Shown piece by piece: positions 6,635 to 58,556 of a stretch of DNA of 64,000 nt. Origin of the DNA: a virus; the IMG/VR virus record IMGVR_UViG_3300027917_000033, positions 23,843-87,842 of that record. One strand, 5' to 3'. The number at the start of each line of letters is the position of its first letter. Position 1 is the stretch's first letter. The notes under the pieces are model-generated. The model made no database searches, was not told the origin of the DNA, and saw only the letters and a program-made list of their open reading frames with translations. Both the position numbers and the translations under genes were made by a program.

Positions 6635-6651
6635 TTTCTCAGCATCCTAAT

Positions 6652-6659
6652 CAAATGTA
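6652..6659 (+). promoter_or_regulatory. candidate phage late-promoter motif CAAATGTA
   Basis: Recurrent CAAA(T/A/G)RTA upstream of gene starts; AGGAGG RBS follows. Confidence 0.4.
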
Positions 6660-6686
6660 AATATAGATAAGGTATAGGAGGAAAGA

Positions 6687-11198: not shown

Positions 11199-11632
11199 CC
11201 CCCTTTCTTATCGCGGTTTTGTCTAGATTCAAGAAGGTGCTTCTTCCATTTTTCGCCACATTCGAAACACATATTGAAGTCCATATGCTTGGGAATTACT
11301 TCAGATGGTCCCTCTTCTTTTTTGTTTTTATCTACTACCACCTTGGTTACAATTAATTGGTAGTACGTGAAAGACGCTCCCTTGCTGTACTTCGGGCACG
11401 AATCACATTTTATCTGTAAAGGGGTGATAGGGCCAAGGTTTTCAATACACTTATTCTTGATGTTAGCAAAGCATGATTCACATATATCACATGAATCAAT
11501 CATTTTGGGCGGCGATGAAAACCCACCGTTAACTGAAATTTCTACTCTGTCGAACGAATAATACGTGAAATCATTTCTATATGCCGACGTACAGATATCA
11601 CACTCTATACCATCCTTTGATTTAAGAAGCAT
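11189..11632 (-). CDS. Cys-rich hypothetical protein (duplicated CxxC module)
   Basis: IECDIC..FTYY..DICESC and IKCDSC..FTYY..NMCFEC. Confidence 0.6.
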   Translation of the reverse strand: MLLKSKDGIECDICTSAYRNDFTYYSFDRVEISVNGGFSSPPKMIDSCDICESCFANIKNKCIENLGPITPLQIKCDSCPKYSKGASFTYYQLIVTKVVVDKNKKEEGPSEVIPKHMDFNMCFECGEKWKKHLLESRQNRDKKGGWS

Positions 11633-14769: not shown

Positions 14770-15103
14770 ATATGTCTAACTTTAATTCTCCTTCGGCTAT
14801 TCTTATGCCCGATTCAGTACCTTGTATCAGTAGGTGATTGTAAGGTAAGATATTCAAAGCTATTCTCTTATTCGATGGTATCCGCCACACCCTACCTATT
14901 TTGTTATCATAAATATTTACAATTGTGGATATCATTTCCTTTAGTTTCGATATGTTGTCCAACCTGGCAAAAAACCTCAATTCGTTTGTGAAGTTTTTGT
15001 GCGTTGTATTCAAATAGCAATCATCACTGTTTCCAGTCGGATCTATCATTATACTAATAGCGCAGAACCCTCTCGACCTTAGTAACTCTATTGCATCGAT
15101 CAT
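14726..15103 (-). CDS. hypothetical protein
   Basis: ORF between the dnaE halves. Confidence 0.6.
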   Translation of the reverse strand: MIDAIELLRSRGFCAISIMIDPTGNSDDCYLNTTHKNFTNELRFFARLDNISKLKEMISTIVNIYDNKIGRVWRIPSNKRIALNILPYNHLLIQGTESGIRIAEGELKLDIYDANEIKSVKRVNQ

Positions 15104-18972: not shown

Positions 18973-19776
18973 TTATCTGTATCCGAAGAACTGGTTAAAG
19001 AATGAATGCGATCTCATAATGTGCATTACTACTGTTGGGTTGATTATATTCTTCCATTCGTCCATAGGTGGAGCCTTGACTTCTCCGCATCCCTCGTGCG
19101 GGAATTTATGCAAATAATACGCATCTGGGTCGGTTGAGGTATTTTCTACGTTTTTGAAATCATGTTCGTAGTAGTCTTCTTCCAATATGTCATAAATTTC
19201 GCGCATCATTGCGTCCGGTCGATCTACCAATCTTTCATACCTTACAAAATTAACTGGCAATTTACGATTTATGATATCGTAAATGCCGTTCAGGGGTCCG
19301 CCGACGATCCCCTGATTGCTAAACGCAAATTCTGCCCTTCCCATCATCGTCTTGCGTTCGCTGTTTTGTGCATAATCGAATAGTGGATTTTTACGATGCT
19401 GTTTTTCTATAGACGCGAATACCTCACGTAAATCTCTTATCATAACTAATATTTTGCTGTTTGGGTACACCCGTCTCAGCGGCATAACTAAATGAGTCCA
19501 CCCACGGCTTTTGTCAAATATTACAGCCCTGTCGTCGTTTCTCGCGTGCCAATTATCCGAGAATGCGCGCAAAGAACGTTCGAGGCGATCTTCTGTGCCT
19601 TTACGATCAGCGTCTAGATCACCTTTAACTTCGAAAGCGTTGCTCCACGTGTTTATTATGTTGTTCCATATAAGTGGCAACGCACTGGTGCTAGTCGCCC
19701 AGAATTTTGGGTTTTGGTTCAAGATATTACACAGGAGTGTGCTTCCACTCCTAGGCAGGCCGGTTATGACGTGCAT
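18973..19776 (-). CDS. Sulfotransferase family protein
   Basis: ITGLPRSGSTLL PAPS loop, DKSRGW, IRDLREVFAS, VRYERL. Confidence 0.85.
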   Translation of the reverse strand: MHVITGLPRSGSTLLCNILNQNPKFWATSTSALPLIWNNIINTWSNAFEVKGDLDADRKGTEDRLERSLRAFSDNWHARNDDRAVIFDKSRGWTHLVMPLRRVYPNSKILVMIRDLREVFASIEKQHRKNPLFDYAQNSERKTMMGRAEFAFSNQGIVGGPLNGIYDIINRKLPVNFVRYERLVDRPDAMMREIYDILEEDYYEHDFKNVENTSTDPDAYYLHKFPHEGCGEVKAPPMDEWKNIINPTVVMHIMRSHSFFNQFFGYR

Positions 19777-33502: not shown

Positions 33503-35134
33503 TTACATTTGAGGAGAATCTGGCCCCATTCCGAGAGCAAGCATTTGGATTTTAATCATTGATTCGTATCTCTTAACTTGATTGGCGCTGATTCCTAAAT
33601 AGTCAGCAATATCAGCCTTTTTGGGGTTGCTGCCATAGGTCTTCTTGAAGTCGGCTGGCGGGTCCACTTTGATGGCAATATATTTTATGGCCAGATCTGG
33701 CAGTTTTTCAAGTAGTGTACGCATAGCATCCCTACTAAGTAAGGAGTTAAAACTTGCGGACAACATATCCTTGTCTGCTATTTGCGACTCTAGCACATCC
33801 CTAACAGTCTTATCGCTATCATTGCTGTGTGGCTCATCAAACGATCTCGTCTGGTTGAACCTCGTTTCGACAATCTTTCTTGATATTATTGGCTGATCGC
33901 CGTTTGGATATACGTAGATTCCTTCATTTTCTACGGCTTTGACACTAACGTTATAACCAAGAAACTCGCGTTTGATTTCTGCAATTTTGATTGTCATTGC
34001 CCGGGGGAGCAAATTGGTTTCAGTTTTGATCAAATTGTTATCGATTTCAAATTTGATCGAATCTTTGGAGTTTTGTAGCATTGAGGCGATGAGCTGCAAA
34101 GCCACATCCTGGGCTTCACCCTTAACCACTCTCGTTATTTTAGTCATTGGTCTCTTATTCTCCTTTAGTATCTGGCCAAAGAATTCCCACCCGAAAGTCT
34201 TCATCAACTTGAACATCTGTTTATCGTCAAAGATGACCGACAGGTTGGGCGTCTTGGCCCTGATGATCAGATGGATCGGACTAAGGCCTTGGATGACGAT
34301 ATAGTGCGGCTTACCTTGTGACACAGTGAACTTGTCTTTTAATTTGTCATAAGCCAGCTGCATCATTTTGAGATCTGAGCCGATTATTGCTGGTCTAGAA
34401 CCATAACCAAGTTTGATCCCAGATGGGAAGGCTTGTGTTATGGTTACTTTTTTGCCTAAATCTGGTCCGGATACAATTTCGACAACATCGCCTGGCCTAA
34501 TTGGTGTTTTGTCAAACGTCCCGAACGGACCACTAAAAATTTGTCTGTGGCTGTTCCACCATGGCGTCATCGGCCCCAATATTGTGCGACCATCCCTGCT
34601 TATGGTAAACTTGGTCTGATCGTTTGGGTTACATAACAAACCACGATCACTAATAGAGACTGTTTTGGTGCTGTCCGGTGTACAAATATGAATTGTGTGC
34701 TCTGGCGGGATTGGCAAATTTTCGTTAATCAATATCGAGACGTTACCAATCTCGATGATGTTGTTATCATAAATGATCCCCTTTTTCCTGGATTTTTTGC
34801 CATTGACTAAGCATTCACCATATGCACGGTATTCTAGTGGGGTATGGTATGTTACTGAGAGGACTGCTCTCCATGCAGCGATCCAGAATTCAGTTTCTGC
34901 GGCATCTGAAAGATCTCGGTATTCACCCTTTATTGTTCTGGCTAGCTGCTTTTTGAATTCGCTTTTGTGCGGGGCCATTTCCGGGTCATCGATCAGTCTT
35001 TTGGTAATTTGATCGATGTTTATGCTTTGGTCCCGGTTGAGGTTCTTGGAGGTGAAGTTGACGAGACTTCCCCTTACGCAAAGACGGGCTACTTGCATCT
35101 TCTGCTCCTTCTTTTTTTCTTCCCGAAATGTCAA
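33503..35134 (-). CDS. sigma70-like factor with large insertion containing a KOW-like motif
   Basis: Region-2-like AETEFWIAAWRAV, RSFDEP, region-4 HTH KADIADYLGISANQVKRYE; IRPGDVVEIVSGPDLGKKVTI. Confidence 0.6.
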   Translation of the reverse strand: MTFREEKKKEQKMQVARLCVRGSLVNFTSKNLNRDQSINIDQITKRLIDDPEMAPHKSEFKKQLARTIKGEYRDLSDAAETEFWIAAWRAVLSVTYHTPLEYRAYGECLVNGKKSRKKGIIYDNNIIEIGNVSILINENLPIPPEHTIHICTPDSTKTVSISDRGLLCNPNDQTKFTISRDGRTILGPMTPWWNSHRQIFSGPFGTFDKTPIRPGDVVEIVSGPDLGKKVTITQAFPSGIKLGYGSRPAIIGSDLKMMQLAYDKLKDKFTVSQGKPHYIVIQGLSPIHLIIRAKTPNLSVIFDDKQMFKLMKTFGWEFFGQILKENKRPMTKITRVVKGEAQDVALQLIASMLQNSKDSIKFEIDNNLIKTETNLLPRAMTIKIAEIKREFLGYNVSVKAVENEGIYVYPNGDQPIISRKIVETRFNQTRSFDEPHSNDSDKTVRDVLESQIADKDMLSASFNSLLSRDAMRTLLEKLPDLAIKYIAIKVDPPADFKKTYGSNPKKADIADYLGISANQVKRYESMIKIQMLALGMGPDSPQM

Positions 35135-35190
35135 AATATTTGGCCATTTATCTGGAGTGTATTTTACGCAATAACCTTAAGGAGACAAAA

Positions 35191-35619
35191 ATGTACGTGA
35201 TATCAGAAGAACTGGAATTTGATTGGACACAATGGCAGCAAGATGGTAATCTCTATGCCTGGGAGAGGTTGCAAGAACAAATTTACAAGATGTGCATGGG
35301 TATCGCAATTAAATTTCGCCCCATAAATGAAGAAGAGCACCGAGAACTGGCACACGAATCATTTGTGCTTACTATGGCCAAAATAAGGGATGGACGGCTT
35401 ACTTTCGACGACAGGGCTCCAGTGTTTAATCTGCTGACAACTACAATTTTCAGGCACCTGTACAGCCTAAAGAACAAAGACAGCAGGCGGCGTAACGCGA
35501 TGAATAAATACGCTAAGAAAATCTTGAATAAGTCTCAAACCAAAGAACAATTATCAACCTCGCAATTAAATCACATTTGGGACTCTCTGTCAAGTATTGG
35601 CGTTACATCGCAAAAATAA
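35191..35619 (+). CDS. short sigma region-2-like protein (gp55-like late sigma candidate)
   Basis: AWERL...IAIKF...RELAHESFV...FD...VFNLLTTTIFRHL. Confidence 0.55.
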   Translation: MYVISEELEFDWTQWQQDGNLYAWERLQEQIYKMCMGIAIKFRPINEEEHRELAHESFVLTMAKIRDGRLTFDDRAPVFNLLTTTIFRHLYSLKNKDSRRRNAMNKYAKKILNKSQTKEQLSTSQLNHIWDSLSSIGVTSQK

Positions 35620-35623
35620 TTAT

Positions 35624-36616
35624 ATGAAACTGAAACCAAATTTACGCCCAAGACCTAATCTACTCAAGACCCCGAAGATACCGGCATCTATATCCGTACA
35701 ACCTAAGAACGCGGTTAAAATACCTACGATTCATTCGAAGCCAATATCTGTTGTTAGAGCTGTTACAAGAAATAGGCCAAAACCGGTGGCTAGGCCAAAA
35801 CCAAGTGGCGTCCAAACAGTTTCGAAGAAAGCTTATGTTGTCAGGAAGCGGTCACTAACTAATGTCCGCCCCAGCCATCTGAGGAAAGCACACGATGCTC
35901 TTCTTGGGAAGCATACCGACAAGATAAGAGAATTGATCGGCTCCGGACATGGTAGAATATTAATTATTATTGCGTGTGGGCCGTCCGTAAATCAAGCAGA
36001 TTTCGAAAAGCTGAAAGAGCATTCAAAAATTGACTTTTTATGTGTGAACAAGCCAGACATGAGGGTTTGGCCATCTAAATATTGGGTATTCTGTGACCAG
36101 TCCCAATACAATAGGAACCAAGAATATTGGCCAGGGTATAAAGGCACCATTATCAATGCATCGTCGGTAAGGGCAAACCACCCAAAGCAGATCCTAATAA
36201 GAACATTGGCTGGTAAAGGATTTTCTAGAGATATGACTAAGGGGTTTCACATAGGTAGATCTACTACATATGCGTCAATGCAAGTGGCACTGTATATGGG
36301 ATACAACAAAATCTACATTTATGGTTGTGACATGAGTGCTGTTGATGGCCAAATGCATAGGTATGGGCAAAACCCTGACGTTTCAAACGAAAATAGGCTG
36401 AAGAGATTCGATAAAGAAGCTGAAAATTATGATTGGGCTCTTCGCGGCATGAAGCAGCATGAAATAGACAAGTTCTTTTTTTGCTCATCACATAATCCTT
36501 ATGGTTTTGCCGATATGTTTGGTAGGCTTGACCAAATAGATGCGCATATAACTATTTTGCGAGAAGCCAATGAATTAATGACCAAGAAAGAAGAATCTGA
36601 GCTAGCAAAAATATAA
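35624..36616 (+). CDS. MAF_flag10/MptE-like (sialyltransferase-like fold) protein with basic N-terminus
   Basis: IIACGPS, CVN, FCD, STTYASMQVALYMGYNKIYIYGCD. Confidence 0.65.
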   Translation: MKLKPNLRPRPNLLKTPKIPASISVQPKNAVKIPTIHSKPISVVRAVTRNRPKPVARPKPSGVQTVSKKAYVVRKRSLTNVRPSHLRKAHDALLGKHTDKIRELIGSGHGRILIIIACGPSVNQADFEKLKEHSKIDFLCVNKPDMRVWPSKYWVFCDQSQYNRNQEYWPGYKGTIINASSVRANHPKQILIRTLAGKGFSRDMTKGFHIGRSTTYASMQVALYMGYNKIYIYGCDMSAVDGQMHRYGQNPDVSNENRLKRFDKEAENYDWALRGMKQHEIDKFFFCSSHNPYGFADMFGRLDQIDAHITILREANELMTKKEESELAKI

Positions 36617-36638
36617 TGGATTTTTAAGGGAACGCATT

Positions 36639-37151
36639 ATGGCCAAAAAGGGTGCGCCAATGGGCAAGGGAAATGTTGGTAAAACTTCTTCAAAGACTTC
36701 GGCCAAGGGTGCCCACGGAGGCGGCATTAAATTTGGCCAGGTTGTGCTTGGCAGTGGATTCAAGACTATTAACAAGGGAATCAATAAAGCAAAATCTGCA
36801 GCAAAGCTACCAAAACCAAAGAATAACATTTCTGAAAGCACAAGCCCGCTAACTAGGCCTCCAGTGTCGCTTGGGAATGGATTTGGAACAAATCCGTATC
36901 TTAGAGCTGAGGCCAAAGCCGTCAGCAAGAAATGGGGGCAGTCTGCGTTAAAGAAAGCTGCCAAGCCGCCCTCGAAAGGTGGTACCAAAGGCTCTCTGCG
37001 CCGCATGATGGGCAAGGGTGAAGGTGAGAAAATAACTAGATCTGAACTTAAGGCGGTGATTGATAACCCAAGAAGTTCTGCCAAAAAGAAGCAAAAAGCA
37101 TTAGCAATATATAATCTTGGTGGTGGGGCGAAGGGCAAAAATGGGAAATAA
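36639..37151 (+). CDS. highly basic Lys/Gly-rich protein (possible DNA-condensing core protein)
   Basis: Composition; CAAAAATA motif at 36606. Confidence 0.6.
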   Translation: MAKKGAPMGKGNVGKTSSKTSAKGAHGGGIKFGQVVLGSGFKTINKGINKAKSAAKLPKPKNNISESTSPLTRPPVSLGNGFGTNPYLRAEAKAVSKKWGQSALKKAAKPPSKGGTKGSLRRMMGKGEGEKITRSELKAVIDNPRSSAKKKQKALAIYNLGGGAKGKNGK

Positions 37152-37185
37152 ACATTATTTGCCTGTTCATGCGTAGTCGTATTTA

Positions 37186-37809
37186 ATGTGCATGAACCTA
37201 TTAAAAAACACCAGTTGCTATTTGGCAGGCCCGGTTGAGCACGACAAGAAAGCCACATCTTGGAGACAGGATGTGGCTTCTTTCTTATCGGCCAGAAGCG
37301 TCAGATCGTACGACCCGCTAATTAAACCACCATGGTTGGACGACATATGCCATGTTGATCCGTCTTTATATAAAAAAGCACTAGACGGCGAAACGCAGGT
37401 AGACGAAATAAACGGCAAAACGATCGAAATAAAGCCGAGCGACGTTATCGAAGCAAATCATATGATGCGTGTTGCTTGCATGCGTATCGTACACGCGGTT
37501 GATTGGGTGATCTGTTATTTGCCCATCAAATTCACTGTTGGAACGTTCGAAGAAATATTCGAAGCAATCCGAGTCGGCAAACCTGTGTTCTTCTGCTGTC
37601 CTAATGGCATACCGTCAACATGGATCTTGTCTGCTGTTGCACGGAATATGAACGAACGAGAGCGCTATTTCTTTGAAGATTGGGATTCACTAAAAGAGCA
37701 TATTGTTAGCATAGATATGGGTCTTGTAAAGTTGGACCCAGTTAAGTGGATGTTTTTGGCGTGGCTCGACTGGGACAAGTACCCGATAGAAACACCGGCA
37801 TGGAGGTGA
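37186..37809 (+). CDS. Nucleoside 2-deoxyribosyltransferase / dNMP N-hydrolase-like protein
   Basis: CYLAGPVE...WR...YDP...DWVICYL...TVGTFEEI...GKPV. Confidence 0.7.
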   Translation: MCMNLLKNTSCYLAGPVEHDKKATSWRQDVASFLSARSVRSYDPLIKPPWLDDICHVDPSLYKKALDGETQVDEINGKTIEIKPSDVIEANHMMRVACMRIVHAVDWVICYLPIKFTVGTFEEIFEAIRVGKPVFFCCPNGIPSTWILSAVARNMNERERYFFEDWDSLKEHIVSIDMGLVKLDPVKWMFLAWLDWDKYPIETPAWR

Positions 37810-37812
37810 AAA

Positions 37813-38481
37813 ATGTATAATATAACCGGGAAAATGGAAATCAACATGATCACTCCGGAGATTGATCCCGCCGCAACATCGAACTTTGCCATGAAATATA
37901 GATGCCCGGCAATTGTAATGAAGCCAGAATTTGTTCCGGCCATGATTGTTGATAGGTCAGCGAAGAGCGGGCAGTATAAAATTATTTCCGCAATCGATTT
38001 CCCAAACGGTAAGAATTTTGCCCTAGATAAGCTCAAGAACATTGATCCGATGGGGTTGGAAGTTGATGGTATGGATATCCTACTGTCGCAGAGGGCCGAA
38101 ATAGATGTGATGAATGAGCTGAAGACTCTGAAAGAGTTGATCAGGCAGACGATAAACCCGGCCATGAGCATCAGGGTTGTTCTTAGATGTCATAGTTCTG
38201 AATGGAGTAACGTTAAGAACTGTTTTGAAGCAATCAAGAAGCACGCCCCCGATATGATTCGTGTAGACCCACATCTTGAATTGCCTAAAGTCGGTTTGGA
38301 AGAACATATTGAGTGTTATAGGAAACTGCGCGAAGTGATTGCCAAGCCAGTTAAAATCTCTGGTAATGTTGATCTAAAGACCATCGAAGAGATTAGTAAA
38401 ATAGATAAGAATGCCAGATTCGACGTCAATCCGAAGCAGGCATATAATATCGTGAACGAATTAAACAAAAGAGAGGAATAA
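37813..38481 (+). CDS. DeoC (deoxyribose-phosphate aldolase)-like TIM barrel, divergent
   Basis: IDFPNG, G.DGMD, VKISGNV; the Schiff-base Lys position appears to be Arg (DMIRVD). Confidence 0.55.
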   Translation: MYNITGKMEINMITPEIDPAATSNFAMKYRCPAIVMKPEFVPAMIVDRSAKSGQYKIISAIDFPNGKNFALDKLKNIDPMGLEVDGMDILLSQRAEIDVMNELKTLKELIRQTINPAMSIRVVLRCHSSEWSNVKNCFEAIKKHAPDMIRVDPHLELPKVGLEEHIECYRKLREVIAKPVKISGNVDLKTIEEISKIDKNARFDVNPKQAYNIVNELNKREE

Positions 38482-39738
38482 ATGTTTAATACTAACGACA
38501 TCTTCCATCCAGGCAAATTGACTATCTGCATGGATGCCAGTGCAGGGAGTTCTGGCAAGGGAAAAGTAGCATCATTCATCTGCGAACACGCAGACAATTG
38601 GCAATTTTGTTGCAACACGTTCTCGGCTCAGGCTGGACATTGGGTGAAATTCGAAGATAAAACATACTTTTATCAGACCTTCAATAGCTGTGCATATTCT
38701 GATAAGTATGAAAAGATGTACATAGGGCCCGGCGCTTCTATGGAATACGAGGCCTTTTTCAACGAGATGGAAGAGAACAATATTGCGCCGGAAAGAATAG
38801 GCATCCACCCGCTATGCGCAATCATTCAAGGCAAAGACGCCGCTTTTGAACGCGGAGAAGTGGATCTGGATGGAAATCCGGCCAAACACACGGGAACTAT
38901 GGAGAAAGGTTCTACTTGCCACGGGGTGGGAGTCTGTCGTGCCAGGCGCGTCCTGCGCAGATCAGATGTCTTGTTGGCCAAAGACGTGCCAGAATTGCAA
39001 AGGTTTGTATGCGATACGACCGAGGAGATCACAGGCCGTTTGGAAGCTGGTCAGGCTGGGCTCCTTGAGATAGCACAAGGATTCCAGTTAAGTCTAATGT
39101 TGGAGAAAATGTACCCGTTTACAACAAGTAGGAATGTTACCGTTGCCGCTGGCTTCGATGATATGATGCTGCCAATAAAGTACGCTGGTGATATCGTCAT
39201 GAATTGCCGCACATATCCGATTAGGATTAACAGCAACAAATACCTTGACCCAGATGACGGCCACCATCTGGTATGGGATGAAATAGAGCAATATAAGAAA
39301 GAGGGCAGGGAGATTACGATATACAAAGGCGATTCAGGACCTGGATACAGTGACCAAAAGGAAATCAGTTGGGATCATCTGACCGAAATCAGCGGGTCGC
39401 CAGAACCCATAATGGAAATGACATCCGTAACCAAGCTTCCTAGGAGGGTGTTCACATTCAGCCAAGAAAATATCAAGCAAGCGATCAAGTACAATGACAC
39501 TGGTTGCACGATTTATTTGTCGGTGAATTTTGCTAACTATGTCGATCATGAAATTACAGGCAAACGTGGCGTGGTGGAACAGCCAGCGCTAATTGGTGAT
39601 AATCTTACTAGCAAATTTAAGGTATGGATACAGCGTAACATATTACCGCTGCTGGGCGATAATGTCAAGTTGCGGTTTGTTGGCACCGGACCCCTTACTG
39701 ATGACATGATTGTGGTTGGCGAAACATGGCCGGAATGA
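38482..39738 (+). CDS. purZ: PurZ-like N6-succino-2-amino-dAMP synthase (PurA paralogue)
   Basis: GSSGKG (Ser for the PurA Asp), AQAGH, GSTCHGVG, EIAQG, YPFTTSR, RTYPIRI, SGPGYSDQKEISW, TKLPRRVFTFS, NFANY in place of TKLD. Confidence 0.75.
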   Translation: MFNTNDIFHPGKLTICMDASAGSSGKGKVASFICEHADNWQFCCNTFSAQAGHWVKFEDKTYFYQTFNSCAYSDKYEKMYIGPGASMEYEAFFNEMEENNIAPERIGIHPLCAIIQGKDAAFERGEVDLDGNPAKHTGTMEKGSTCHGVGVCRARRVLRRSDVLLAKDVPELQRFVCDTTEEITGRLEAGQAGLLEIAQGFQLSLMLEKMYPFTTSRNVTVAAGFDDMMLPIKYAGDIVMNCRTYPIRINSNKYLDPDDGHHLVWDEIEQYKKEGREITIYKGDSGPGYSDQKEISWDHLTEISGSPEPIMEMTSVTKLPRRVFTFSQENIKQAIKYNDTGCTIYLSVNFANYVDHEITGKRGVVEQPALIGDNLTSKFKVWIQRNILPLLGDNVKLRFVGTGPLTDDMIVVGETWPE

Positions 39739-40724
39739 AGAAAATTGTGATCACTGGCGGTGCGGGCTACATCGGGTCGCTTCTCACTGGCAAGTTTATA
39801 GACAGTGGGTATGAAGTCGCGGTCATTGATAAGTTATTGTTCGGTGGCGATCATATGCTGTGCTATAATCGTGACCAATTTTCTTTGCACCCATATGATA
39901 TAATGGATATGCCAGATGGTCTGCTTAGCTCGATATGCAGTGGTGCCGATGCAGTTGTACATTTGGCAGCATTGGTTGGCTTCCCGGCCTGTCAGCAAGT
40001 AGGCCCTTCCGTGTCTAAACGTTACAATGTTGATACCACAAAGAAAATGTTTGATATTGCGAATGCCGAAGGAGTGGAGAGATTCGTTTTTGCATCTACA
40101 TACAGCAATTATGGTAAATCATCAGATGGTAAGCCTGTAACTGAGGAATCGCCTCTAAATCCACAATCAATATATGCCGAAAACAAAATAGAGTCAGAAG
40201 AGCTTCTGTTAAATGCCAATACCGATTGTAAACCTCTTGTTTTGAGGCTATCTACACTGTTCGGCGCTTCACCGAGGACACGATTCGACTTAATAGTAAA
40301 CCAGTTTGTACTCGAAGCCCTGACTCATGGAAAGATAATAATCTACCAGAAAAACTATCGCCGGTCGTTCTGTCATGTGTATGATGTAATCTTATGCATG
40401 CATCAAGCCATTGCTGAATGGGATCTAGACTCGTATGATGATGTATGGAACGTCGGGAGCAATCAGCATAATATGTCTAAAGAAGAGGTCATCAGTTTGA
40501 TCAAATCCAAGATTCCGCTTGAAGTGGAATACAAAGATTTGTCGTTTGGTGGTGATATGAGAGACATCACAGTGTCTTTTGACAAGATTATATCAAAGCA
40601 TGGCTTCGAGCCTAAGATATCAGTTATGGGTGGAATCAGAGAAATCAAACAGATTATACAAACCGGGTTGGTTAAGAATCCGTTTGACGACAAGTATAGA
40701 AATGCTAAGTTTATCGTCAGTTAG
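39735..40724 (+). CDS. NAD-dependent sugar epimerase/dehydratase
   Basis: ITGGAGYIGS, HLAA, YAENK (YxxxK), LRLSTLFG. Confidence 0.9.
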   Translation: MKKIVITGGAGYIGSLLTGKFIDSGYEVAVIDKLLFGGDHMLCYNRDQFSLHPYDIMDMPDGLLSSICSGADAVVHLAALVGFPACQQVGPSVSKRYNVDTTKKMFDIANAEGVERFVFASTYSNYGKSSDGKPVTEESPLNPQSIYAENKIESEELLLNANTDCKPLVLRLSTLFGASPRTRFDLIVNQFVLEALTHGKIIIYQKNYRRSFCHVYDVILCMHQAIAEWDLDSYDDVWNVGSNQHNMSKEEVISLIKSKIPLEVEYKDLSFGGDMRDITVSFDKIISKHGFEPKISVMGGIREIKQIIQTGLVKNPFDDKYRNAKFIVS

Positions 40725-41272
40725 ATCATAAAGACTGACTTCAATTCAGAAATGAACTTTTCCACTTCTTCGTTGGTGTGTCCCTTCTTCATTCTTTTTA
40801 TGCCGTCGCATATGAGTTGAACATTGGATTTCGTGTAATCCGTCCCACTCTTTAAATCTATCCGCACCGCAAACAAGTCACCCCTTTGGTGCGTCATTTC
40901 TATCCCGCTCATAGCACATCTTCCGTTCTGTTTGCTCCAAAGATCGTCTAGGAAATCTAATGATAAATCATATTTAAGCGAATTTTTCTCACTGATCCTG
41001 CGAATATGAGACATCTGGTCGGTAAGAAACCTTCTTGGGCTCGACTGCTTTGATTTTGAATCCGTATCGGCATTTCTGGTTATGTTTTTCTTGTTTTTCT
41101 TGTACCATTTGCTCCATCTTTCACGTCTTTCTTTTACAAACTTTGGGTCACCCGATCTTTTCTTATTGTAGGCTGATAAGATTGCCAGTGCGCATTCGCG
41201 GCACTTGGCGGAGTTGTAAAAAGGAACATCCTTGTCGTTTGCACCACATATCTTACAAAATCGCATTTTCAA
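40721..41272 (-). CDS. zinc-finger + degenerate His-Me endonuclease-like protein
   Basis: CKIC/CREC; QNGRCAMSG...RID...YTKSNVQLIC. Confidence 0.55.
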   Translation of the reverse strand: MKMRFCKICGANDKDVPFYNSAKCRECALAILSAYNKKRSGDPKFVKERRERWSKWYKKNKKNITRNADTDSKSKQSSPRRFLTDQMSHIRRISEKNSLKYDLSLDFLDDLWSKQNGRCAMSGIEMTHQRGDLFAVRIDLKSGTDYTKSNVQLICDGIKRMKKGHTNEEVEKFISELKSVFMI

Positions 41273-41333
41273 GCAAACCTAAATTAGACGTTTTGGACAG
41301 CTTTCAAATACTTTTGACTTGAGGAGACAAGAG

Positions 41334-41729
41334 ATGGCCAGTCAGCCAGCAAATGCGAGTATTAGGGTTCACCGCCGGATTCGCTCATACCGGCAGATGA
41401 TCCGGCACAATAATGTGAAGGCCATGGTCAATCGGATGAGGCCGTTGATCATGTCCATGCCGGGTCGTGAGACTCAGATTCTTAGCACTTTCGATGGAGA
41501 TGCCAATATCGTGCAGACCAACCTCACATCTGATCGCCGGGGCCTGCCGATTGTCAGGTACCTCAGGCCTGTGGTGCCGTTCCAGACGGCAGCCGAGAAC
41601 ATCGCCGGGCTTAACTTCCCCGTGGTGATTGGCCAGGACAAGTTCCTGGAGAAGAGCGATGCGAATGTCGCAGACGATCTCCACGAGAATGCCCGGGATA
41701 CGGATGCTGGCCAGGCCAACTTCCGGTAA
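41334..41729 (+). CDS. putative highly expressed (virion) protein
   Basis: GC-rich codons, AGGAG RBS, CAAATAC upstream, strong terminator downstream. Confidence 0.65.
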   Translation: MASQPANASIRVHRRIRSYRQMIRHNNVKAMVNRMRPLIMSMPGRETQILSTFDGDANIVQTNLTSDRRGLPIVRYLRPVVPFQTAAENIAGLNFPVVIGQDKFLEKSDANVADDLHENARDTDAGQANFR

Positions 41730-41749
41730 TATGGGGAATAGGGAACTCA

Positions 41750-41782
41750 GAAAGGGAGGAGAGATTTTCTCTCCTCCCTTTC
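41750..41782. terminator. bidirectional terminator
   Basis: GAAAGGGAGGAGAGA-ttt-TCTCTCCTCCCTTTC between convergent genes. Confidence 0.75.
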
Positions 41783-41891
41783 ATTATTATACAGATGCAC
41801 ACTGTTGGGACGCATCTAGAAAACGAGTACCCAAATAAGGCGTTTAGTATGACGCTGACTCTTTCCGGCTATTCTGGCCCGCAGAGTTAAG

Positions 41892-42308
41892 TTAAGTCGT
41901 CTCCACCCTGAGCTGCGATGCTGGGCACAAGTATTCACCAGGTCTCTTGTATCCATCAGGCATCTCCCACGACTCTACCCACCAGTAGAATTCTGGTCCC
42001 CAGTGATGCTCACGCGAGATCCTACACTTCTTCCCCTGAAGCTTAGGTGCACATACACTACCTGGCCCGATGCCTGGACAGTCTTCGCAGTTGACATCTA
42101 CGTAGTCACCTACTTTCACAGTTCTCTCCTGAACACTACGTTGCTCGGCGTTAAGGGTATTCCAGAACCCTTGCAGTCGGAGCATTTCTGCCGTTGTCGG
42201 CAGGTGGGCGTCCCTGCATTTCTCGTTGCAGTAATGCCACTCATACCAAGCAAGGCCACAGCTCCCGCAGGAGTGGAACGTCTTGCCACAGCTCTTGCAC
42301 TTGCCCAT
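41892..42308 (-). CDS. Cys-rich hypothetical protein
   Basis: CKSC..CGSC..CNEKC. Confidence 0.5.
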   Translation of the reverse strand: MGKCKSCGKTFHSCGSCGLAWYEWHYCNEKCRDAHLPTTAEMLRLQGFWNTLNAEQRSVQERTVKVGDYVDVNCEDCPGIGPGSVCAPKLQGKKCRISREHHWGPEFYWWVESWEMPDGYKRPGEYLCPASQLRVETT

Positions 42309-49309: not shown

Positions 49310-52300
49310 CGCAGGACGATAGATAGGACGATGTATCCGACACACAGCAGGACCACTCCGCCCAAAATCCCGCACAAGATGTCCATCCATCACCTCAACT
49401 CGTTTGTTTAATCGATATCGAAATTCTGGTTCCCGCATGAAGGACACATGGCCTTGTGCTTGTTCTTCTCCCAACCCTTCGCTGTCCACCACCGTTGTTG
49501 CCACGCCACCCTCAACTCCTTCACGAATTCGAGCAGCAACCAGTTCCATGAGAAACACGCCATGCCCTTTTTGGTCTTCCACCGAAGCACGGGCACCCAT
49601 GTAAACCGAATCAGATCGGGAAAGATGTAAGCGTCGAACCGAATGAGCCGGGGACGCCATAGCCACTTGATGTCATCCCACATCTTCGTAAGGGGATTGT
49701 ATCGCCGTGACCAAAAATCATCCTGCGCCCAATCACAGGCGTGGCAGTGTAGATAGGCCACCTTCGTTCCCTCCAAAACCAATCCTCAACTCAAAAGCAT
49801 TGCCGCGCCCATAATAGCTGTCCCGACAGATATGGTAATGATCGCCCATGCAACATCGCGGAGAGCAATCTTGCACAGCCAATGGGCCTCTCCTGGAATT
49901 GGCATCTTCACTCTCCCAATCATTTGATTGTGCGGCACTTGATCTCGCCACTTCCTTGGCAATAGGTGCAGGGCTGCGTCCCAATGTCTTCGCCATCCGC
50001 CGTTCGGATGATCTCTGCTCCCCCGCCACCGCAGGCCAAGCACGGCATTTTTGCTATCTCAATTTTCGCTCTCGGCTTCATATCTCCTCGCTTCAATACC
50101 GCCACGATTTCTGAGTGGTTCTCGCCCCACCGGATTGTGATCCGTAGCGCCCTCACCCAAGCCCTCCATGTGGCTGGCTCCGTTGGCGCACTCCAGGCGC
50201 AAAACCATGTCTGCGTGAACGGGAGTCGCCAGTAAATCGGCAGCTTAAAATGATTGCGGAGCCAGTAGGTAAAGCGTCTTCTGGGGGCCCACTCGAATGG
50301 GAGAATGCCGCCCATCTGTGCTATTTTGGCCCATCCGTGGATAACCCCCGCCTCGGTCCCCATGGCCGATGCCGAGAGCTTTTCCACCTCCTTGAGAATC
50401 TTGGCCTCCGACAGGTCTGGGCGACAACTCCGCAGCGCATTCAGCGCCTCTCCTATTTCAATCGCCCGCTTGCAGCCGTATGGCATCATTTGATACTCCT
50501 GTGAAAACTCTTGTGCTTTTTGCACTTCTTCCCCCGCTTACACCTGGCGCATTTTCCCATCAAACTCTTGTCCTCTTAAGGCATCTTGACTACGGGTTTG
50601 GGATACAACACGAAATCGGCCCCACACACGGGGCAAGCGGCGTGGGCAAAGTCGCCGGGATCGCGCTGGCACCCATGCTCGACCTTCAACTCTGCGGCCT
50701 TCGCCTCCATGGTCGATTTACAGGCGTGGCATGTGCCCCGGAATGTTCTTTCCTTGGGGGCCGTCCCTCGCTCTACAACTTCCATCGTCCTACCTCTTCG
50801 CTCTTACTGGTATTTGTCCAACTTGGCGAACCGGATGACGGCCCCAGGCTCCCGGTAGAAGGTCATGGTGTTGGCCTTGGGGTTGCGCCACTGAAAGACC
50901 ATGAAGGCCACCCCGTAGAAGGCCATCACCACGAAGAGAATGACTTGGATTACGATTGCCGCCTTGCTATTCATCTTCACTCCCCTCGTCATTTGTCCAC
51001 AAACGGATATGTAATCCAAATCACCCGCCTGCAACCACGGCAGCGATACCCCCGCCCCCCCTGAGAATCTACATCGAATGAGAGCCACGCGGCCCCACAC
51101 CGACACGCGCCGCCGTTCCAGTCCCTCTTCTCAAGTGAGCGGGCTGTTACCATAGCGCCCACGAAAACCGCAAAAACCGTAATTGCCACGATCACCATGC
51201 AACACCTCTATCAGGTCAGAAGAACGTCTATCTACCCGCCCGTACTTTACACACCTGGGACACCATCCCCCCGGCTGGATCACATCCCCGCATCGAGGAC
51301 ACGGCCAGGTGGCGGGGTAGCCGGGGTATAGTCCTGGGAAGTCCATATTGCTTTCCTAAGATTCTGACCGTGCTAACGCCTTGCGTTAGAGTGGTCGGAT
51401 GTTCCATTATGTCTTACACATGTTGTTTTGCCTCACTGGTTTGGGTAATGGCGCTTGATAGAATCCTGTAGCACCATAATGATGTGATCGCGCTCCAGCG
51501 TATGTGGGCTGTTCTTTTTGAGCCAATCAATGTCCTCATAGACTAATTTCATATAGGCGTCTTTATTCAACTTGGTTCCCATTTTAACTTCCCCTTTCAT
51601 TTGTCATCTTGACTCGATTCTCTCTCCGAATCGGTCTTCTGGGTATACGAGCATCTCGCCCCCTATTGCGATACAGCGCGGCACCTCACTACCAGCCGCA
51701 ATGTAGCCCCGGCAAAACTCGTTTGTGCCTTCGGCAAGAGACACCCACTCCCATCCACCACGAAGTTCATTGTATTGATGCTGCACCACATGATAATTCT
51801 CTGGCCCCCCACCACTGACAGCATTCACGGCAAGGAGGGCATCAAGGGCGAAGTCTGCAATCGACCGGACGGTTTCGGAATCTTTGCCATTTAGGTCAAG
51901 CGCCAGCTTCATCTTGGCTATCTCTGGGCCTCCCATGTTTCCTCCTTACTCCTCAACTCGAAAATAAGGTTGCCACCTTTTCCGCACATCGACGGCAAAT
52001 CGTAGCCCACGCGTCCCATCTCTTCTCGTTGTCCACGTAATCCCGTGTTGGGAGATTACAGAAGCTGCACCACCCAGAGATCCATGAGATATTCGCCCCG
52101 GCATCGTCTATGTCTTGTGGGGTGGCATTCTCGACATCCAGGGCCGCAAGGCGGTTATATATCACCTCAGGGTCATTGTGCATAAGCCCGCCCCATTTTC
52201 CCCCGCGCCTATGGAAGTATTGGTCCTTCCACCTCTCGGCCACCCGCCGTATCATGTCACGCTCGGTCACTCGAACCATCTCACTCTCCCAATCCTCAAC

Positions 52301-54110
52301 TCGTATGTTGGGCCTTCGCTAATGCCCTCTCCACGATCTCCCACACCACTGGGAATCGCCTCAGATGTTCGTCATCGGCAAACCGATTCCTAACGACCAA
52401 AAGGGCATCCCGCATGTCTGGCGCGGCTGATGCGAGATGGGCGTTCTTGCGCCCCTCGGGATCGTTGTTGAAAAACCCGATATGGACCTCTTTCCCGCGT
52501 ATCACCTCGATCTGGTCGTCTGTGTATTCTGCTACTTCCCAATCGTCCATCTTCACTCTCCCAATCATTTACACAGTTCCCACCGGAGATCGCCCTCGGG
52601 GTGGGTCCAGTATCGTTTGTGTCGATAGAGATTCCCGTTTTTGTGGACCCCCACGCGCCTGCCGCACTTGGGGCACTCGACAGACTTCTTGGCCTTTGGG
52701 GGCTTCCAGTATGTAGGATAAACCGTGTACCCTCGGTAAACCATCACAAGTCCTCAACCAATCAACAGCCTGGTTCGTCCATGTCCCGCAAGAGATAATA
52801 GAGATGTTTGACATCCCACCACAAACGAGTCGTCCATGGTATGTCTGGGCTCACCACCCCATCATCCTCAACGGCATGAAAATATACGGTCTTCCCGCAA
52901 GCATCACAGAAAAGAGAATGGTGTTTCGCCTTGTCGTCACCCATGGGGCTGTAACATTCGTCCCAAAGGTGCAATCCGCGTCGGCAAAACCACCTTGGCC
53001 AAACCCATCCCAGTATTCCAATGTAGGTAAATCCGTTGTATTTCATCTGACTTTCGTCCTCAACCAATCATTTGCCTTGCTTCTGGCACTCCTTGCACAG
53101 CCTCCGGTATATCCCTGGGTGTCCACTCACCCTCATTACAAACTCCCGCCTGCACCGGATGCAGTTGGCCGTGTGCGTTGTCTTCTTCTTCCCTGGTCGC
53201 ATCACTCTTGTCCTCGTTTGATTAACGCCTTTTCACGAAAGATCCGCTGCCATCTGGCTTGACGTATCCTTCGTCGAGAAGCCACGAGGCAAACGAATAG
53301 AGAAGTCCATCGATTCCAGCTTCAAGGATGAATTCCTGCAAGGTCGAGCCCGTTTCCTTCAAGTTGTTTTGAAGCCATTCTTTGTAGAGATTGTCAATGG
53401 ATTCTCCCATCATCGTTGCCTTTCAAAATCGCTCATTTGCCTATTCTACGAATAGCCTCGATCACGCATCGCACATCCCCCGGGGAAATCGGCGGAAATT
53501 TGGTCACCTCGTTCGCCCGGAGCATGTTTGCGATCTTGGCGATCTCTTCCATTTCGATCAGGTTGTAATCGTCTTTCATCTTCACTCCTCTCGTCAACTA
53601 TGAATCCACTGCCTTGCGATCTCGCATAGGGCAATAAAGACCTCATCCTTGTCTCGCTCCCGGCTTTCGAGTTGATCATAGGGAACGAGGTCGGGGTGAA
53701 CCTTCTTCTCGCGGTCATAGACCTCCCCGTACACCCACCCCATTTCGATGTAGGCTTGCATCCACCCCCCATGCAGCTCCTCGGGAGACGATGATCGGAG
53801 GTCGCCACACTGCCTGTCGATTACCTCGATGAATTGGGTCTTGAATGCATCTTCCCTGTCTGCCCACAGCGCGGGAACAATAGGGGCCTCGGCTGCTTCT
53901 GCCGCCAGCCTTGCCGCGTTGTATACAAATTCCGCCCTTCGCTCCTTTAGGTCCATGGTTCAACCTTTCAAATCTAAGATTCTGTGCATCGAGTCCACTT
54001 GGACCCCAGGAAGATCCGCGCCCGAAGGCGCATGAGCCAAGACACATCCCTGCTCATGGTCACAAGCAACTCCCCTGAGCCGAACACGTCCCACACCCAG
54101 CCGTTACTAT
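49300..54110 (-). other. GC-richer island of small co-oriented ORFs with repeated stop-RBS-start junctions
   Basis: Visibly higher GC, no tRNAs; ORFs e.g. 49408-49782, 49920-50525, 50576-50785, 51953-52279, 52296-52568, 52762-53067, 53594-53956. Confidence 0.6.
53594..53956 (-). CDS. RyR-domain protein
   Basis: HGGWM...GWVYGEVYDREKKVHPDLVPYDQL...KD. Confidence 0.8.
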   Translation of the reverse strand: MDLKERRAEFVYNAARLAAEAAEAPIVPALWADREDAFKTQFIEVIDRQCGDLRSSSPEELHGGWMQAYIEMGWVYGEVYDREKKVHPDLVPYDQLESRERDKDEVFIALCEIARQWIHS

Positions 54111-56759: not shown

Positions 56760-57254
56760 TCACTCGGGCGGTTTCGTACCAATCATGCCGTCCTTTGGAT
56801 TAATCGACTTAGTAGCCTTGTAATTCAAGAAGAAGGTTTGGCTGCACACTGGCTCATACGGGTTGGCTAACGATACTGGTTTGTCAGTAATATAGGCATT
56901 TTCTGGGCTTACTGTGTATTTCTTAAAAATCTTTCGATCTGTACAAATTATTGGTTTGTGGTTGGCATCATAAATGGCATATCCATTGCCGTTGGTTATG
57001 CCAAAGTGCGGGATGTAATCTGGGCTGTAAAGATCTTTTTTGACACAAGTTTCCCACGTATCAAAGGCGGCACATTTAACCCAATATGTGCCGCCTTTAT
57101 ATAATGCCAATTTGCCCATTGGTTGTACGCTAATTAGGCCTGACGCAATGGTGCTTGGATACACTTTTCTAATGGTAGGCATTGTGAATTTAGTGAAATC
57201 GATATCTTTAATTTTTTCTTGCGCCTTTGGGTTGAATTTGTATTCAGTCGTCAT
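56760..57254 (-). CDS. protein with T4 gp23 major-capsid-like N-terminal segment
   Basis: MPTIRKVYPSTIASGLISVQPM. Confidence 0.55.
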   Translation of the reverse strand: MTTEYKFNPKAQEKIKDIDFTKFTMPTIRKVYPSTIASGLISVQPMGKLALYKGGTYWVKCAAFDTWETCVKKDLYSPDYIPHFGITNGNGYAIYDANHKPIICTDRKIFKKYTVSPENAYITDKPVSLANPYEPVCSQTFFLNYKATKSINPKDGMIGTKPPE

Positions 57255-58227
57255 TTATTTTAATTCCTTCTTTTCTCAAGTCACCAAGAATACCATTTAT
57301 CATTTCTTGTGGCAAATCTTCTGGTGCGTACACTCCTGGTTTTAAGTTGCTGCAAACCAATCTTGCTGCTGCGTATGCTGCTGGGCTGGCTGTGGTCCTG
57401 GCCATCGCCGATTTCCCATTTTCGCCGAAGGCCGTCATTGCCCAGCATTTATTATCAACTTCTACTCTCATTGTAACTACGTCGTCTTGATATCCACAGT
57501 TTAGTATGTTAGCGTCGAGCATGTTCATTTCTTGCAGCAATTTGATCCTGTCTATGTGCCCTGGCCATCTAAGAGTTTTCTCGACCGCACTATCTAGGCA
57601 ATTTATGCCCAATAACGTCCTAAGACCATCAGTTAGGAAAGCTTCTTGTAAGCCAACTCCCTCGAAGAATACAAATTCTCTGTCTGTTAGTGGGTTTACT
57701 GTGATACGCACTCCCCGTGGTTGTATGATCCTGGCTGGTCTTGTATATTCTTCGATGACGTCGTTTGGTGCGAATTGTGCGTTATAATATAGTGGCGGTT
57801 CTGGGTGGATCGGGTTGCCGCCAACGAGTATCTTCACGTTCTTTGGCTCTTTTACCAATCCTACCAACATATTTGTTATGCCAGGTGCTAAACCCATATC
57901 AATCACAATGATTGATCCGCTATGCTCGGCTTTTTCGCTTAGCTCTTCCATTGGGTCTTCTGGCATGAATGTGACATCGACGCAATTTTGGCCACATTCG
58001 ATGATTTTATCTAATACTTGCCACCCTATGGCACTTGGTAATGTGTTGACTATGATGTCCCATTGTTTTTGTAATACTGCGGAAATATTTTCACTCTTTG
58101 AGAGATCAAGCGTAATAGCTTGTTTTGATGGGTCGGCATCAAAGGCTTGTACTTTGACACCCATGCTGCCGAGAATCTTTGTGGCTTCTGTACCCACGTT
58201 GCCCATGCCCAACACTGCAGCATTCAT
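57244..58227 (-). CDS. Saccharopine dehydrogenase / lysine 6-dehydrogenase family
   Basis: LGMGNVG, DMGLAPGITN, VGGNP, IEEYTRPARI, TDGLRTL, KTLRWPGH, AMARTT. Confidence 0.85.
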   Translation of the reverse strand: MNAAVLGMGNVGTEATKILGSMGVKVQAFDADPSKQAITLDLSKSENISAVLQKQWDIIVNTLPSAIGWQVLDKIIECGQNCVDVTFMPEDPMEELSEKAEHSGSIIVIDMGLAPGITNMLVGLVKEPKNVKILVGGNPIHPEPPLYYNAQFAPNDVIEEYTRPARIIQPRGVRITVNPLTDREFVFFEGVGLQEAFLTDGLRTLLGINCLDSAVEKTLRWPGHIDRIKLLQEMNMLDANILNCGYQDDVVTMRVEVDNKCWAMTAFGENGKSAMARTTASPAAYAAARLVCSNLKPGVYAPEDLPQEMINGILGDLRKEGIKINDD

Positions 58228-58556
58228 GCTTCGCCTTTCAACGGACATGCCTGGCACACCGATGGAGTTGCCGATAAACAGTGTTTGATTGCATCTGCTA
58301 ATGTGTCAAGACTATCTGGATCGTGCAACATGATCGTTGCATATTCACAGAATTTAATTAATCCGTTTACTATTCTAAATTCATGATAAAATGACTCCAT
58401 CCATACTCGTAATTCAAATCCACCAGGGATGGCCCACTTTACCTCAGTATTGTTGACACCTCTTGACGCCAACTCATCGGCCAGTGAATTGTAGATATGC
58501 TGTTCCTCAGCGAATCCTGGGTGTGAAATTGTCGCCCTATAATGCATTAGAGCCAC
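58224..58556 (-). CDS. LxDP-family hypothetical protein
   Basis: MLHDPDSL. Confidence 0.5.
   Translation of the reverse strand: MALMHYRATISHPGFAEEQHIYNSLADELASRGVNNTEVKWAIPGGFELRVWMESFYHEFRIVNGLIKFCEYATIMLHDPDSLDTLADAIKHCLSATPSVCQACPLKGEA

Follow-up and report, generated by a model that had tools for sequence, protein, structure and literature searches.

Results

A PurZ-type gene directly behind two closely packed genes

The DNA analysed here (the window) is a stretch of 64,000 nucleotides (nt), positions 23,843 to 87,842 of the IMG/VR virus record IMGVR_UViG_3300027917_000033. It forms the final 64 kb of this one linear 87,842-bp record, and all coordinates are given in the numbering of the window. 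It contains a gene for a homologue of adenylosuccinate synthetase (PurA) that resembles PurZ, the enzyme of phages that carry 2-aminoadenine (Z) in place of adenine in their DNA. Two further genes lie directly upstream of this purZ gene, and the three are separated by 0-3 nt:

37186-37809, plus strand: protein of the NDT superfamily, 207 amino acids (aa), a candidate deoxynucleoside monophosphate (dNMP) N-glycosidase of the DmtZ/DNPH1 kind (structure match, invariant residues, hhalign)
37813-38481, plus strand: DeoC-fold (TIM-barrel) protein, 222 aa (Atlas predicted model; no Pfam match)
38482-39738, plus strand: long-form PurZ-type (Ser-type) homologue of adenylosuccinate synthetase, 418 aa (open reading frame, motifs, PF00709, PHROG 1211, PurZ structures in the PDB, residue map, trees)

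The first-pass annotation of this DNA had picked out the last of the three and missed the most informative context, namely the NDT/DmtZ-like and DeoC-fold genes directly upstream. Our favoured reading, held with modest confidence, is that 38482-39738 would encode a working PurZ-type enzyme, belonging to a separate and longer clade carried by large or jumbo phages, with a predicted pathway around it.

The purZ open reading frame (ORF) is uninterrupted, starts with ATG and has its stop codon within its coordinates. The five motifs that the first-pass annotation had named are all present in it (GSSGKG at residues 22-27, RTYPIRI at 243-249, SGPGYSDQKEISW at 285-297, TKLPRRVFTFS at 317-327 and NFANY at 349-353), and the two substitutions read from them, in the P-loop and in the nucleotide-specificity motif, are real in the alignment. 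The protein matches PF00709 with an expect value (E) of 4.7e-15 and 55.7 bits, the Pfam cut-off being 27, and matches PHROG 1211, '2-aminooxy adenylosuccinate synthetase', with E 4.7e-31. Among the solved structures, 5k7x and 2d7u (E 1e-21), which we take to be short adenylosuccinate synthetases (PurA type) of Pyrococcus horikoshii, match equally well as 6fm1 and 6fko (E 1e-21); S-2L PurZ (7odx) follows with E 1.1e-15. Structures 6fm1 and 6fko are those of phiVC8 PurZ (PMC8342488, section 7).

A collection of 5.8 billion proteins holds 608 homologues at E<=0.001, a count that also takes in more distant Ser-type sequences beyond the long-form clade, and a representative library yielded 1338 at the same threshold. 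The best 120 of the 608 share 53-88% identity with our protein and come from contigs of up to 370 kb. The closest match among named phages is Flavobacterium phage MaF61 (168 kb, 32% identity), identity to the classic PurZ phages being 26-30%. Where PurA has its catalytic aspartate, Ser is present in 224 of the 225 readable P-loops among the 270 nearest proteins (GSSGKG 152, GSTGKG 42, GSEGKG 17, others 13); GGEGKG was found once and GDEGKG never, and the 45 proteins in which the pattern was not found are fragments or variants.

Residues that set PurZ apart from PurA are kept

We aligned the protein onto the positions to which substrate choice is assigned in sections 7-8 of PMC8342488 and in Results 4 of the metaGPA preprint (10.1101/2025.10.22.683976). 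Ser23 aligns with Asp14 of E. coli PurA (Met1 counted), which we took as the Asp13 of PMC12884076 (section 24), assuming an offset by the initiator Met; Ser stands here in 33 of the 34 rows of the long-form clade. N349-F350-A351-N352 aligns with T331-K332-L333-D334 (TKLD) of the E. coli enzyme, with F350 and N352 present in 34/34 rows, and its counterparts are N305-F306-x-Q308 in S-2L and N294-F295-x-N297 in phiVC8. According to the same sections of the two sources, the N-F-x-N/Q motif stacks on and hydrogen-bonds adenine, while T-K-L-D is specific for guanine. Thr314, again in 34/34 rows, occupies the position of T262 in phiVC8 and T273 in S-2L, where E. coli PurA has Gly299, and T314-S-V-T317 as a whole matches S-2L T273-T276. 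R248-I249 matches R240-V241 of S-2L, the residue that crowds C2'; the clade has Ile in 26 and Val in 8 of the 34 rows, and Ile249 may act like Val241 of S-2L. Also kept are G22, A51, G52, H53, G143, S144, T145, R159, Q199, T215, R321 and G403-P404. In terms of the roles that these sources derive from the S-2L and phiVC8 structures, the positions of Ser23 and Thr314 would recognise the 2-amino group of guanine, Arg248-Ile249 would exclude a 2'-OH, His53 and Arg321 would handle aspartate and phosphate, and Asn349, Phe350 and Asn352 would hold the adenine of adenosine triphosphate (ATP) or dATP. No variation was seen at the catalytic positions across 32 clade members, at identities down to 34%.

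Four long-form relatives of 750-824 aa (P0121, P0122, P0126 and P0136) are interrupted by inteins (Hint plus LAGLIDADG), whose insertion points differ, lying roughly after residues 148, 163, 219 and 235. Inteins usually sit in important active-site regions.

The long-form proteins form a clade of their own

A maximum likelihood tree (the careful tree; LG+G4, 58 rows, 371 columns), rooted on the PurA of E. coli and Listeria, places our protein inside a Ser-type PurZ/PurZ0 supergroup with support of 100/99, values taken from a bootstrap that had not fully settled. Within it, the long-form clade comprises 23 rows (100/99), which include MaF61 and sequences encoded on records of 341, 320, 256 and 247 kb. 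The canonical PurZ clade (100/100) excludes the 38482-39738 protein; its 10 rows are Vibrio phage phiVC8, cyanophage S-2L, Salmonella phage PMBT28, Acinetobacter phage SH-Ab 15497 and six contigs of IMG/VR. Arthrobacter phage Wayne and Gordonia phage Ghobes, which belong to the basal PurZ0 group (97/93), lie apart from our protein as well. A quick tree of 77 rows agrees with the careful one. The trees leave out intein-bearing and fragmentary representatives, 120 of the 150 representatives, and most near-duplicates of the 79 IMG/VR loci, 34 of which were used in the quick tree and 22 in the careful tree. Thus the phylogeny proposed in the first-pass annotation as a check came out on the side of PurZ/PurZ0 and outside PurA, at a place separate from both the canonical clade and the PurZ0 group.

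Could the gene simply be an auxiliary PurA that boosts the synthesis of adenosine monophosphate from inosine monophosphate (IMP), aspartate and guanosine triphosphate during infection? Fold and Pfam family are the same, as are the P-loop architecture, the catalytic His and the phosphate-binding Arg and Thr that it shares with bacterial, archaeal and Asp-type large-phage PurA; PurA-like genes do occur in large phages such as Va1 (195 kb), RHph_Y65 (207 kb) and the Bxz1-like phages (154 kb), and some relatives of our record carry a purB-like gene. However, the catalytic Asp is replaced by Ser, here and in every one of the readable P-loops bar the GGEGKG variant (Asp in 0/225), TKLD by NFAN and the E. 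coli Gly299 by Thr, and the Asp-type PurA proteins of Va1, RHph_Y65 and ScottMcG fall outside the Ser-type supergroup in the careful tree. We consider this explanation very improbable. The first-pass claim that the protein is of the PurZ type and not PurA is therefore upheld by the Ser at the catalytic Asp, the NFxN in place of TKLD, the Thr at phiVC8 T262/S-2L T273 and the grouping with PurZ/PurZ0. More broadly, the PurZ-type reading follows from the matches to PF00709, PHROG 1211 and the PurZ structures, the P-loops, the trees, the residue map, the invariant catalytic positions and the inteins: by every sequence criterion that could be tested the predicted protein is PurZ-type, except for clade membership and three pocket residues.

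The upstream genes encode a DmtZ-like and a DeoC-fold protein

The Pfam matches of the 37186-37809 protein are below cut-off (PF15891, E 6.2e-5; PF05014, E 3.5e-3), and its profile gave only weak matches to NDT and cytidine monophosphate glycosidase structures in the PDB (E 0.07-1.9). Its predicted model from the Atlas superimposes on viral NDT clusters with template modelling (TM) scores of 0.74-0.76, normalised by the query. In 14 homologues, Y12, E18 and E123 do not vary and D106 hardly does. We compared the gene with DmtZ, which in PurZ0 phages specifically hydrolyses deoxyadenosine monophosphate (dAMP) and also passes deoxyribose 5-phosphate on to the Z base (PMC12884076, sections 21 and 23). 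It aligned with the N-terminal DmtZ domain of the Wayne DmtZ-DutZ fusion (hhalign E 8e-4), sharing YLAxPxD/E, YDP..W, a conserved Asp, G..E and DGxPSW, and with a profile of Wayne and Ghobes gp53 DmtZ (hhalign probability 72.6%, E 3.2e-5, 53 columns around the nucleophile). The catalytic set of Ghobes DmtZ is Y6, D12, N77 and E103 (PMC12884076, section 23). The two families align at the catalytic Glu, and in both an N-terminal Tyr is followed by an acidic residue six positions on; the alignment is confident in the Glu region only, the correspondence of the Tyr and the acidic residue coming from the weaker Wayne alignment. Ghobes gp51 was also considered as DmtZ and dropped, as it did not match the NDT-like profile and phmmer pointed to gp53 instead. 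As far as fold prediction and alignment go, the 37186-37809 product is an NDT-fold protein with the catalytic residues of DmtZ, for which dAMP specificity is a candidate property only.

For the middle gene, 37813-38481, we found no Pfam family, and its profile gave nothing meaningful against the PDB. The Atlas model (predicted TM 0.81) superimposes on the DeoC cluster with a TM score of 0.84 over 208 residues, making DeoC/DERA the nearest fold, with the predicted TIM barrel in common. Lys167 of E. coli DeoC is, we take it, the Schiff-base lysine of this class I aldolase. In a weak hhalign alignment with E. coli DeoC (E 0.17), R150 falls on K167 and a PVK motif on K201; among the 15 family members the K167 column, in this weak alignment, holds Arg in 11, Lys in 3 and Asn in 1.

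The NDT/DeoC pair is linked to long-form purZ

Of 80 loci that contain a PurZ-like gene, 14 have the NDT-like gene and 15 the DeoC-fold gene, the two always side by side, and the PurZ proteins of these loci are 32-68% identical to ours. Profiles of the two genes (hmmsearch) found only members of the long-form clade among the collected loci, and none in the four PurZ0 loci. Since the 88-kb record is a fragment, we also searched whole related records: 17 from large phages, three of which are 100% complete (320-341 kb or about 150 kb), with 7 canonical PurZ contigs of about 50 kb as controls. The NDT-like gene occurs in 8/17 and the DeoC-like gene in 9/17 of them, compared with 0/7 controls. A search seeded with the NDT-like gene returned 8 loci, including two new records (one complete of 395 kb, the other of 125 kb); each of these has a gene for a Ser-type PF00709 protein, which belongs to a further clade, and therefore 8/8 NDT-like loci share their record with a PurZ-type gene.

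The cultured phage MaF61 (PQ858689.1) encodes its long-form Ser-type PurZ homologue at 118051-119394, annotated as adenosuccinate synthetase, and an adenylosuccinate-lyase gene at 129735-131090 among structural genes; the paper on MaF61 mentions neither. The NDT/DeoC pair was not found in those other records of about 130-170 kb in the MaF61 sub-branch that were searched whole, nor within +/-12 kb of purZ in MaF61.

A two-piece DnaE replicase and the genes of related phages

The polymerase genes of the window are the following:

15100-16491, minus strand: N-terminal piece of DnaE, with the PHP domain and the start of polymerase III alpha (PF02811, E 3.9e-42; PF07733, E 9.8e-27; PHROG 405)
11622-13985, minus strand: C-terminal piece of DnaE, with the rest of polymerase III alpha, fingers and HhH (PF07733, E 5.8e-31; PF17657; PF14579)
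2244-3353, minus strand: short protein resembling family-A polymerases (PF00476, E 2.3e-14, model positions 245-379, the C-terminal third only)

DnaE is encoded in 8/17 large records and 0/7 controls, and as two ORFs in six of the former (G001, G002, G004, G005, G011 and G013). The break falls at Pfam model position ~98-101, as it does in six related records, and the gap of G001 contains a MazG-like ORF. The closest protein match of the DnaE piece, at 30% identity, comes from an uncultured 595-kb phage. A full-length family-A polymerase is present in 7/7 controls as opposed to a single large record (1/17, G015); seven other large records have short C-terminal family-A matches, six of them over the cut-off. 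Between our DnaE halves lie three small genes (124, 138 and 125 aa), one with a sub-threshold RNase H match (E 6e-4). They were considered as the place of a hidden MazZ and rejected: a Pfam MazG search gave no match, and they are unlike S-2L MazZ, the gene annotated as pyrophosphohydrolase beside purZ in PMBT28, and the stretch with the MazG-like ORF of G001.

Over the cut-off, the large records contain the MazG family in 6/17, the dUTPase family in 6/17 and Lyase_1 (PurB-like) in 8/19, the last compared with 0/7 controls. CheckV put the completeness of the 87,842-bp record at 24%, so the whole phage would probably measure ~350 kb; records that share the gene block are 247-395 kb long. The DnaE-encoding jumbo phage of the first-pass annotation therefore stands as regards DnaE, with the correction that there are two ORFs, whereas its jumbo status is an estimate drawn from the completeness value and the size of the relatives.

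A putative Z pathway and the evidence that weighs on it

The tight packing of the three genes, the sharing of the record with PurZ in 8/8 NDT-like loci, the likeness to DmtZ and the Lyase_1 genes of the relatives led us to read the trio as a putative PurZ/adenine-clearance module. The long-form PurZ would condense deoxyguanosine monophosphate (dGMP) with aspartate using ATP or dATP; adenylosuccinate lyase, phage-encoded in the eight Lyase_1 records and not found in the fragment, would then release the Z deoxynucleotide, dZMP; kinases would make dZTP, and the two-piece DnaE replicase would insert Z opposite T. Adenine would be cleared by the two upstream genes instead of DatZ/MazZ. The NDT-family, DmtZ-like N-glycosidase may split dAMP into adenine and deoxyribose 5-phosphate, and the DeoC-fold protein may bind or process the latter, probably not as a classical Schiff-base aldolase. 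A deoxynucleoside triphosphate pyrophosphatase could feed both PurZ and the glycosidase; none was found in the fragment, and MazG- or dUTPase-family genes are present in complete relatives. We lean towards dZ synthesis by this route, and a Z genome is plausible. More tentatively, and on balance doubtfully, these DnaE jumbo phages may replace adenine by Z completely, with a third set of helpers made up of the long-form PurZ, the DmtZ-like glycosidase and a re-tooled DeoC-fold enzyme, whose part would be to dispose of the deoxyribose 5-phosphate set free by the glycosidase or to provide it for Z-base salvage.

A series of observations counts against this reading. The protein lies outside the canonical PurZ clade, and the careful tree does not settle the branching order among the PurZ, PurZ0 and long-form clades. 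Three pocket residues are changed (in the S-2L/phiVC8 numbering, A21 stands for F12/Y21, Q50 for N49 and W54 for T53), and a 34-residue insert common to the long-form clade follows right after R248-I249. The NDT-like gene is absent from 9/17 and the DeoC-like gene from 8/17 of the large long-form PurZ records. In the complete 320-kb record G002, the pair is found ~25 kb from purZ, at 5102-8604 (minus strand) of the 143000-155000 stretch, in the order NDT, DeoC-fold, dCTP-deaminase-like, thymidylate-kinase-like and dUTPase, and could point to pyrimidine metabolism. A sigma-like and an MptE-like gene upstream are equally syntenic with the module, and part of the adjacency may therefore reflect the gene order of the lineage. 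The DeoC-fold protein probably lacks the aldolase Schiff-base lysine, if the low-confidence alignment is correct. Finally, YfbR-like (DatZ) genes over the cut-off are present in 0/17 large records (five have sub-threshold matches) as opposed to 7/7 controls, and DUF550 likewise in 0/17 as opposed to 7/7.

The changes in the pocket are not uniform in the clade: the first position holds A in 19, F in 6 and Y in 4 rows, the second N in 23 and Q in 10, and the third T in 19 and W in 11. F213, standing for Y203, is a further changed position, and two more inserts account for the remaining extra length of the protein. Together with the separate clade, these features leave room for a different substrate or product: the enzyme might act on another purine (deoxy)nucleotide or add another group and, with its NDT-like, DeoC-fold and MptE-like neighbours and the epimerase of this phage, build some other modified purine or a sugar-decorated base. 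The conserved NDT-like, DeoC-fold and MptE-like neighbours have no characterised function, the DeoC-fold protein appears re-tooled, and the cluster in G002 is of a pyrimidine type, all of which would suit such a product. The residues that distinguish PurZ are nevertheless kept (Ser23, Thr314, Phe350 and Asn352, in the proportions given above), of the 80 loci that contain a PurZ-like gene, just the 2 closest have the sugar epimerase gene downstream of purZ, and the adenylosuccinate-lyase-like genes of the relatives fit an intermediate with an aspartate adduct. We regard a different product as improbable.

The missing helpers bear on a second alternative, in which the chemistry is the same and there is no Z genome: 2-amino-deoxyadenylosuccinate and dZMP would be made, and Z would replace adenine only partly, or the pools of dGMP and dATP would chiefly be reshaped, perhaps depriving host replication or a defence system of nucleotides, leaving the virion DNA mostly ordinary. 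In the whole 88-kb record, YfbR-like, HD_3, HD, DUF550, MazG, dUTPase and Lyase_1 gave no match at E<=1. The first-pass annotation had recognised neither DatZ nor MazZ in the window, an observation that holds for the whole 88-kb record and extends to the complete relatives of 320-341 kb. Besides the lack of DatZ and DUF550 in the 17 large records, a polymerase of the DpoZ type is missing; moreover, as reported in parts of PMC12944874, purZ-mazZ-datZ without a matched polymerase brought about only partial substitution in E. coli, and S-2L PurZ itself consumes dATP (PMC8342488, section 7). On the other hand, purZ and the DmtZ-like gene are closely linked, and DmtZ clears adenine without DatZ in PurZ0 phages (PMC12884076, sections 21 and 25); parts of PMC8065100 also describe S-2L as having a full Z genome with a non-selective PrimPol. 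This alternative strikes us as unlikely, though it deserves to be kept in mind.

Coming back to a PurZ-type enzyme with its own adenine clearance, the predicted pathway around long-form PurZ would resemble the PurZ0/DmtZ solution more than the DatZ/MazZ one. With the canonical PurZ phages (phiVC8, S-2L, SH-Ab 15497 and PMBT28) the protein shares the PurA fold, the P-loop Ser, the Thr at S-2L T273, the NFxN/Q motif for ATP, Arg and a branched aliphatic residue by C2', the His/Arg/Gln catalytic set and the supergroup. It differs from them in the low identity already given, in having GSSGKG where they have GSTGKG, and in being ~50-70 residues longer, through the 34-aa insert and the two others; those phages have DatZ, MazZ/DUF550 and DpoZ or PrimPol, whereas here neither DatZ nor DUF550 was found, a two-piece DnaE stands in place of a full family-A polymerase and the genome is several times larger. 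The PurZ0 phages Wayne and Ghobes use the NDT-family dNMP glycosidase DmtZ instead of DatZ, and a DmtZ-like gene is the neighbour here. They also use DutZ; dUTPase-family genes are found in the complete relatives and not in the 88-kb fragment. Wayne PurZ0 has T-M-x-D where N-F-x-N stands here, and our family C polymerase is unlike what the PurZ0 phages have. The DeoC-fold partner, which differs from DeoC in lacking a Pfam match and in the Arg placed on Lys167, is not mentioned in sections 19, 21 and 23-25 of the DmtZ paper (PMC12884076). The first-pass interpretation is thus retained for the PurZ type, the family-C polymerase and the missing helpers; the Z genome, which it gave as possible, stays a plausible reading, for a protein that falls outside the canonical PurZ clade and differs from it in three pocket residues.

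Parts of PMC8599892 describe the characterised Z phages as siphoviruses and podoviruses, and the four reference Z-phage genomes measure 39-48 kb, three of them having a family-A polymerase gene beside purZ. Our literature search returned no paper on PurZ in jumbo phages: the accessible parts of the overview PMC7824862 are silent on it, and those of the PhiMa05 paper list PurB only. Members of the long-form clade may be among the 151 PurZ-group viral proteins that PMC12884076 lists, and among the predicted Z viruses, put at 'over 2000' in PMC13128860. Should the full pathway be true, Z genomes would occur in phages larger by a factor of about eight (250-400 kb), a DnaE-type replicase, the bacterial-type polymerase III alpha, would copy Z-DNA, and a new adenine-clearing pair of enzymes would be at hand for making Z-DNA in cells. 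Since the clade has a cultured member, MaF61, the question of a Z genome is directly testable.

Other genes and features of the record

Three more genes of the window bear on the neighbourhood of purZ or on Z-related contigs:

35597-36616, plus strand: MptE-like/DUF115-type protein with a basic N-terminus (PF01973, E 4.6e-5, below cut-off; PHROG 4603, E 8.7e-7)
39726-40724, plus strand: gene of the NAD-dependent sugar epimerase/dehydratase family (PF01370, E 6.7e-36), overlapping the purZ stop by 13 nt
9133-9858, minus strand: protein of the uracil-DNA-glycosylase superfamily (PF03167, E 1.6e-26)

The MptE-like gene is syntenic in 15 loci and, in addition, in L094, L096 and L099. The small gene upstream of it (35128-35619) is syntenic with the module in about 15 loci, and its N-terminus seems to resemble late sigma factors of the T4 gp55 type. 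The MptE-like and NDT-like genes flank a gene (36639-37151) for a 170-aa basic protein rich in Lys and Gly, which among the relatives is present in the two closest only. The epimerase stands beside purZ in these two (L004 and L005), and a role of it in the module is doubtful. The uracil-DNA-glycosylase domain PF03167 is listed in Results 7 of the metaGPA preprint among the domains that co-occur on dZ-enriched contigs. For replication and repair, the window also encodes a DnaB-like helicase, RecA/UvsX, gp32-like and UvsY-like proteins, and SbcCD.

A megablast search of window positions 36000-42000 against 50,697 phage records gave no match, so that no phage record among them is close in DNA. 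The DNA stretch was present in two DNA sequencing runs of one marine-sediment sample from one study, with no RNA run among the listed holders. Scanning 185,579 species genomes with the clade alignment gave three distant matches (28-29% identity), in metagenome-assembled genomes, and 0 from the long-form clade, and therefore no clue to the host.

In the 88-kb record, palindromic hexamers made of G and C only are depleted: 15 were seen for 83 expected under a third-order model, a ratio of observed to expected (O/E) of 0.18, compared with 0.88-0.95 for hexamers containing A/T. Five of the eight G/C-only hexamers are missing altogether, and CTCGAG and GTCGAC are also rare. We rejected this restriction-site footprint as evidence for Z, because it goes in the same direction in every group, including the Asp-type PurA negative control (O/E 0.41, 25 kb); the depletion is weaker in all comparison groups than in the 88-kb record.

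The minus strand of the window carries auxiliary genes that are unusual in a phage, one of the sulfotransferase family at 18973-19776 and one resembling saccharopine dehydrogenase at 57244-58257 (PF16653, E 2.8e-23). The G+C content rises to 0.53-0.55 at 50001-54000, from ~0.43 across most of the window.

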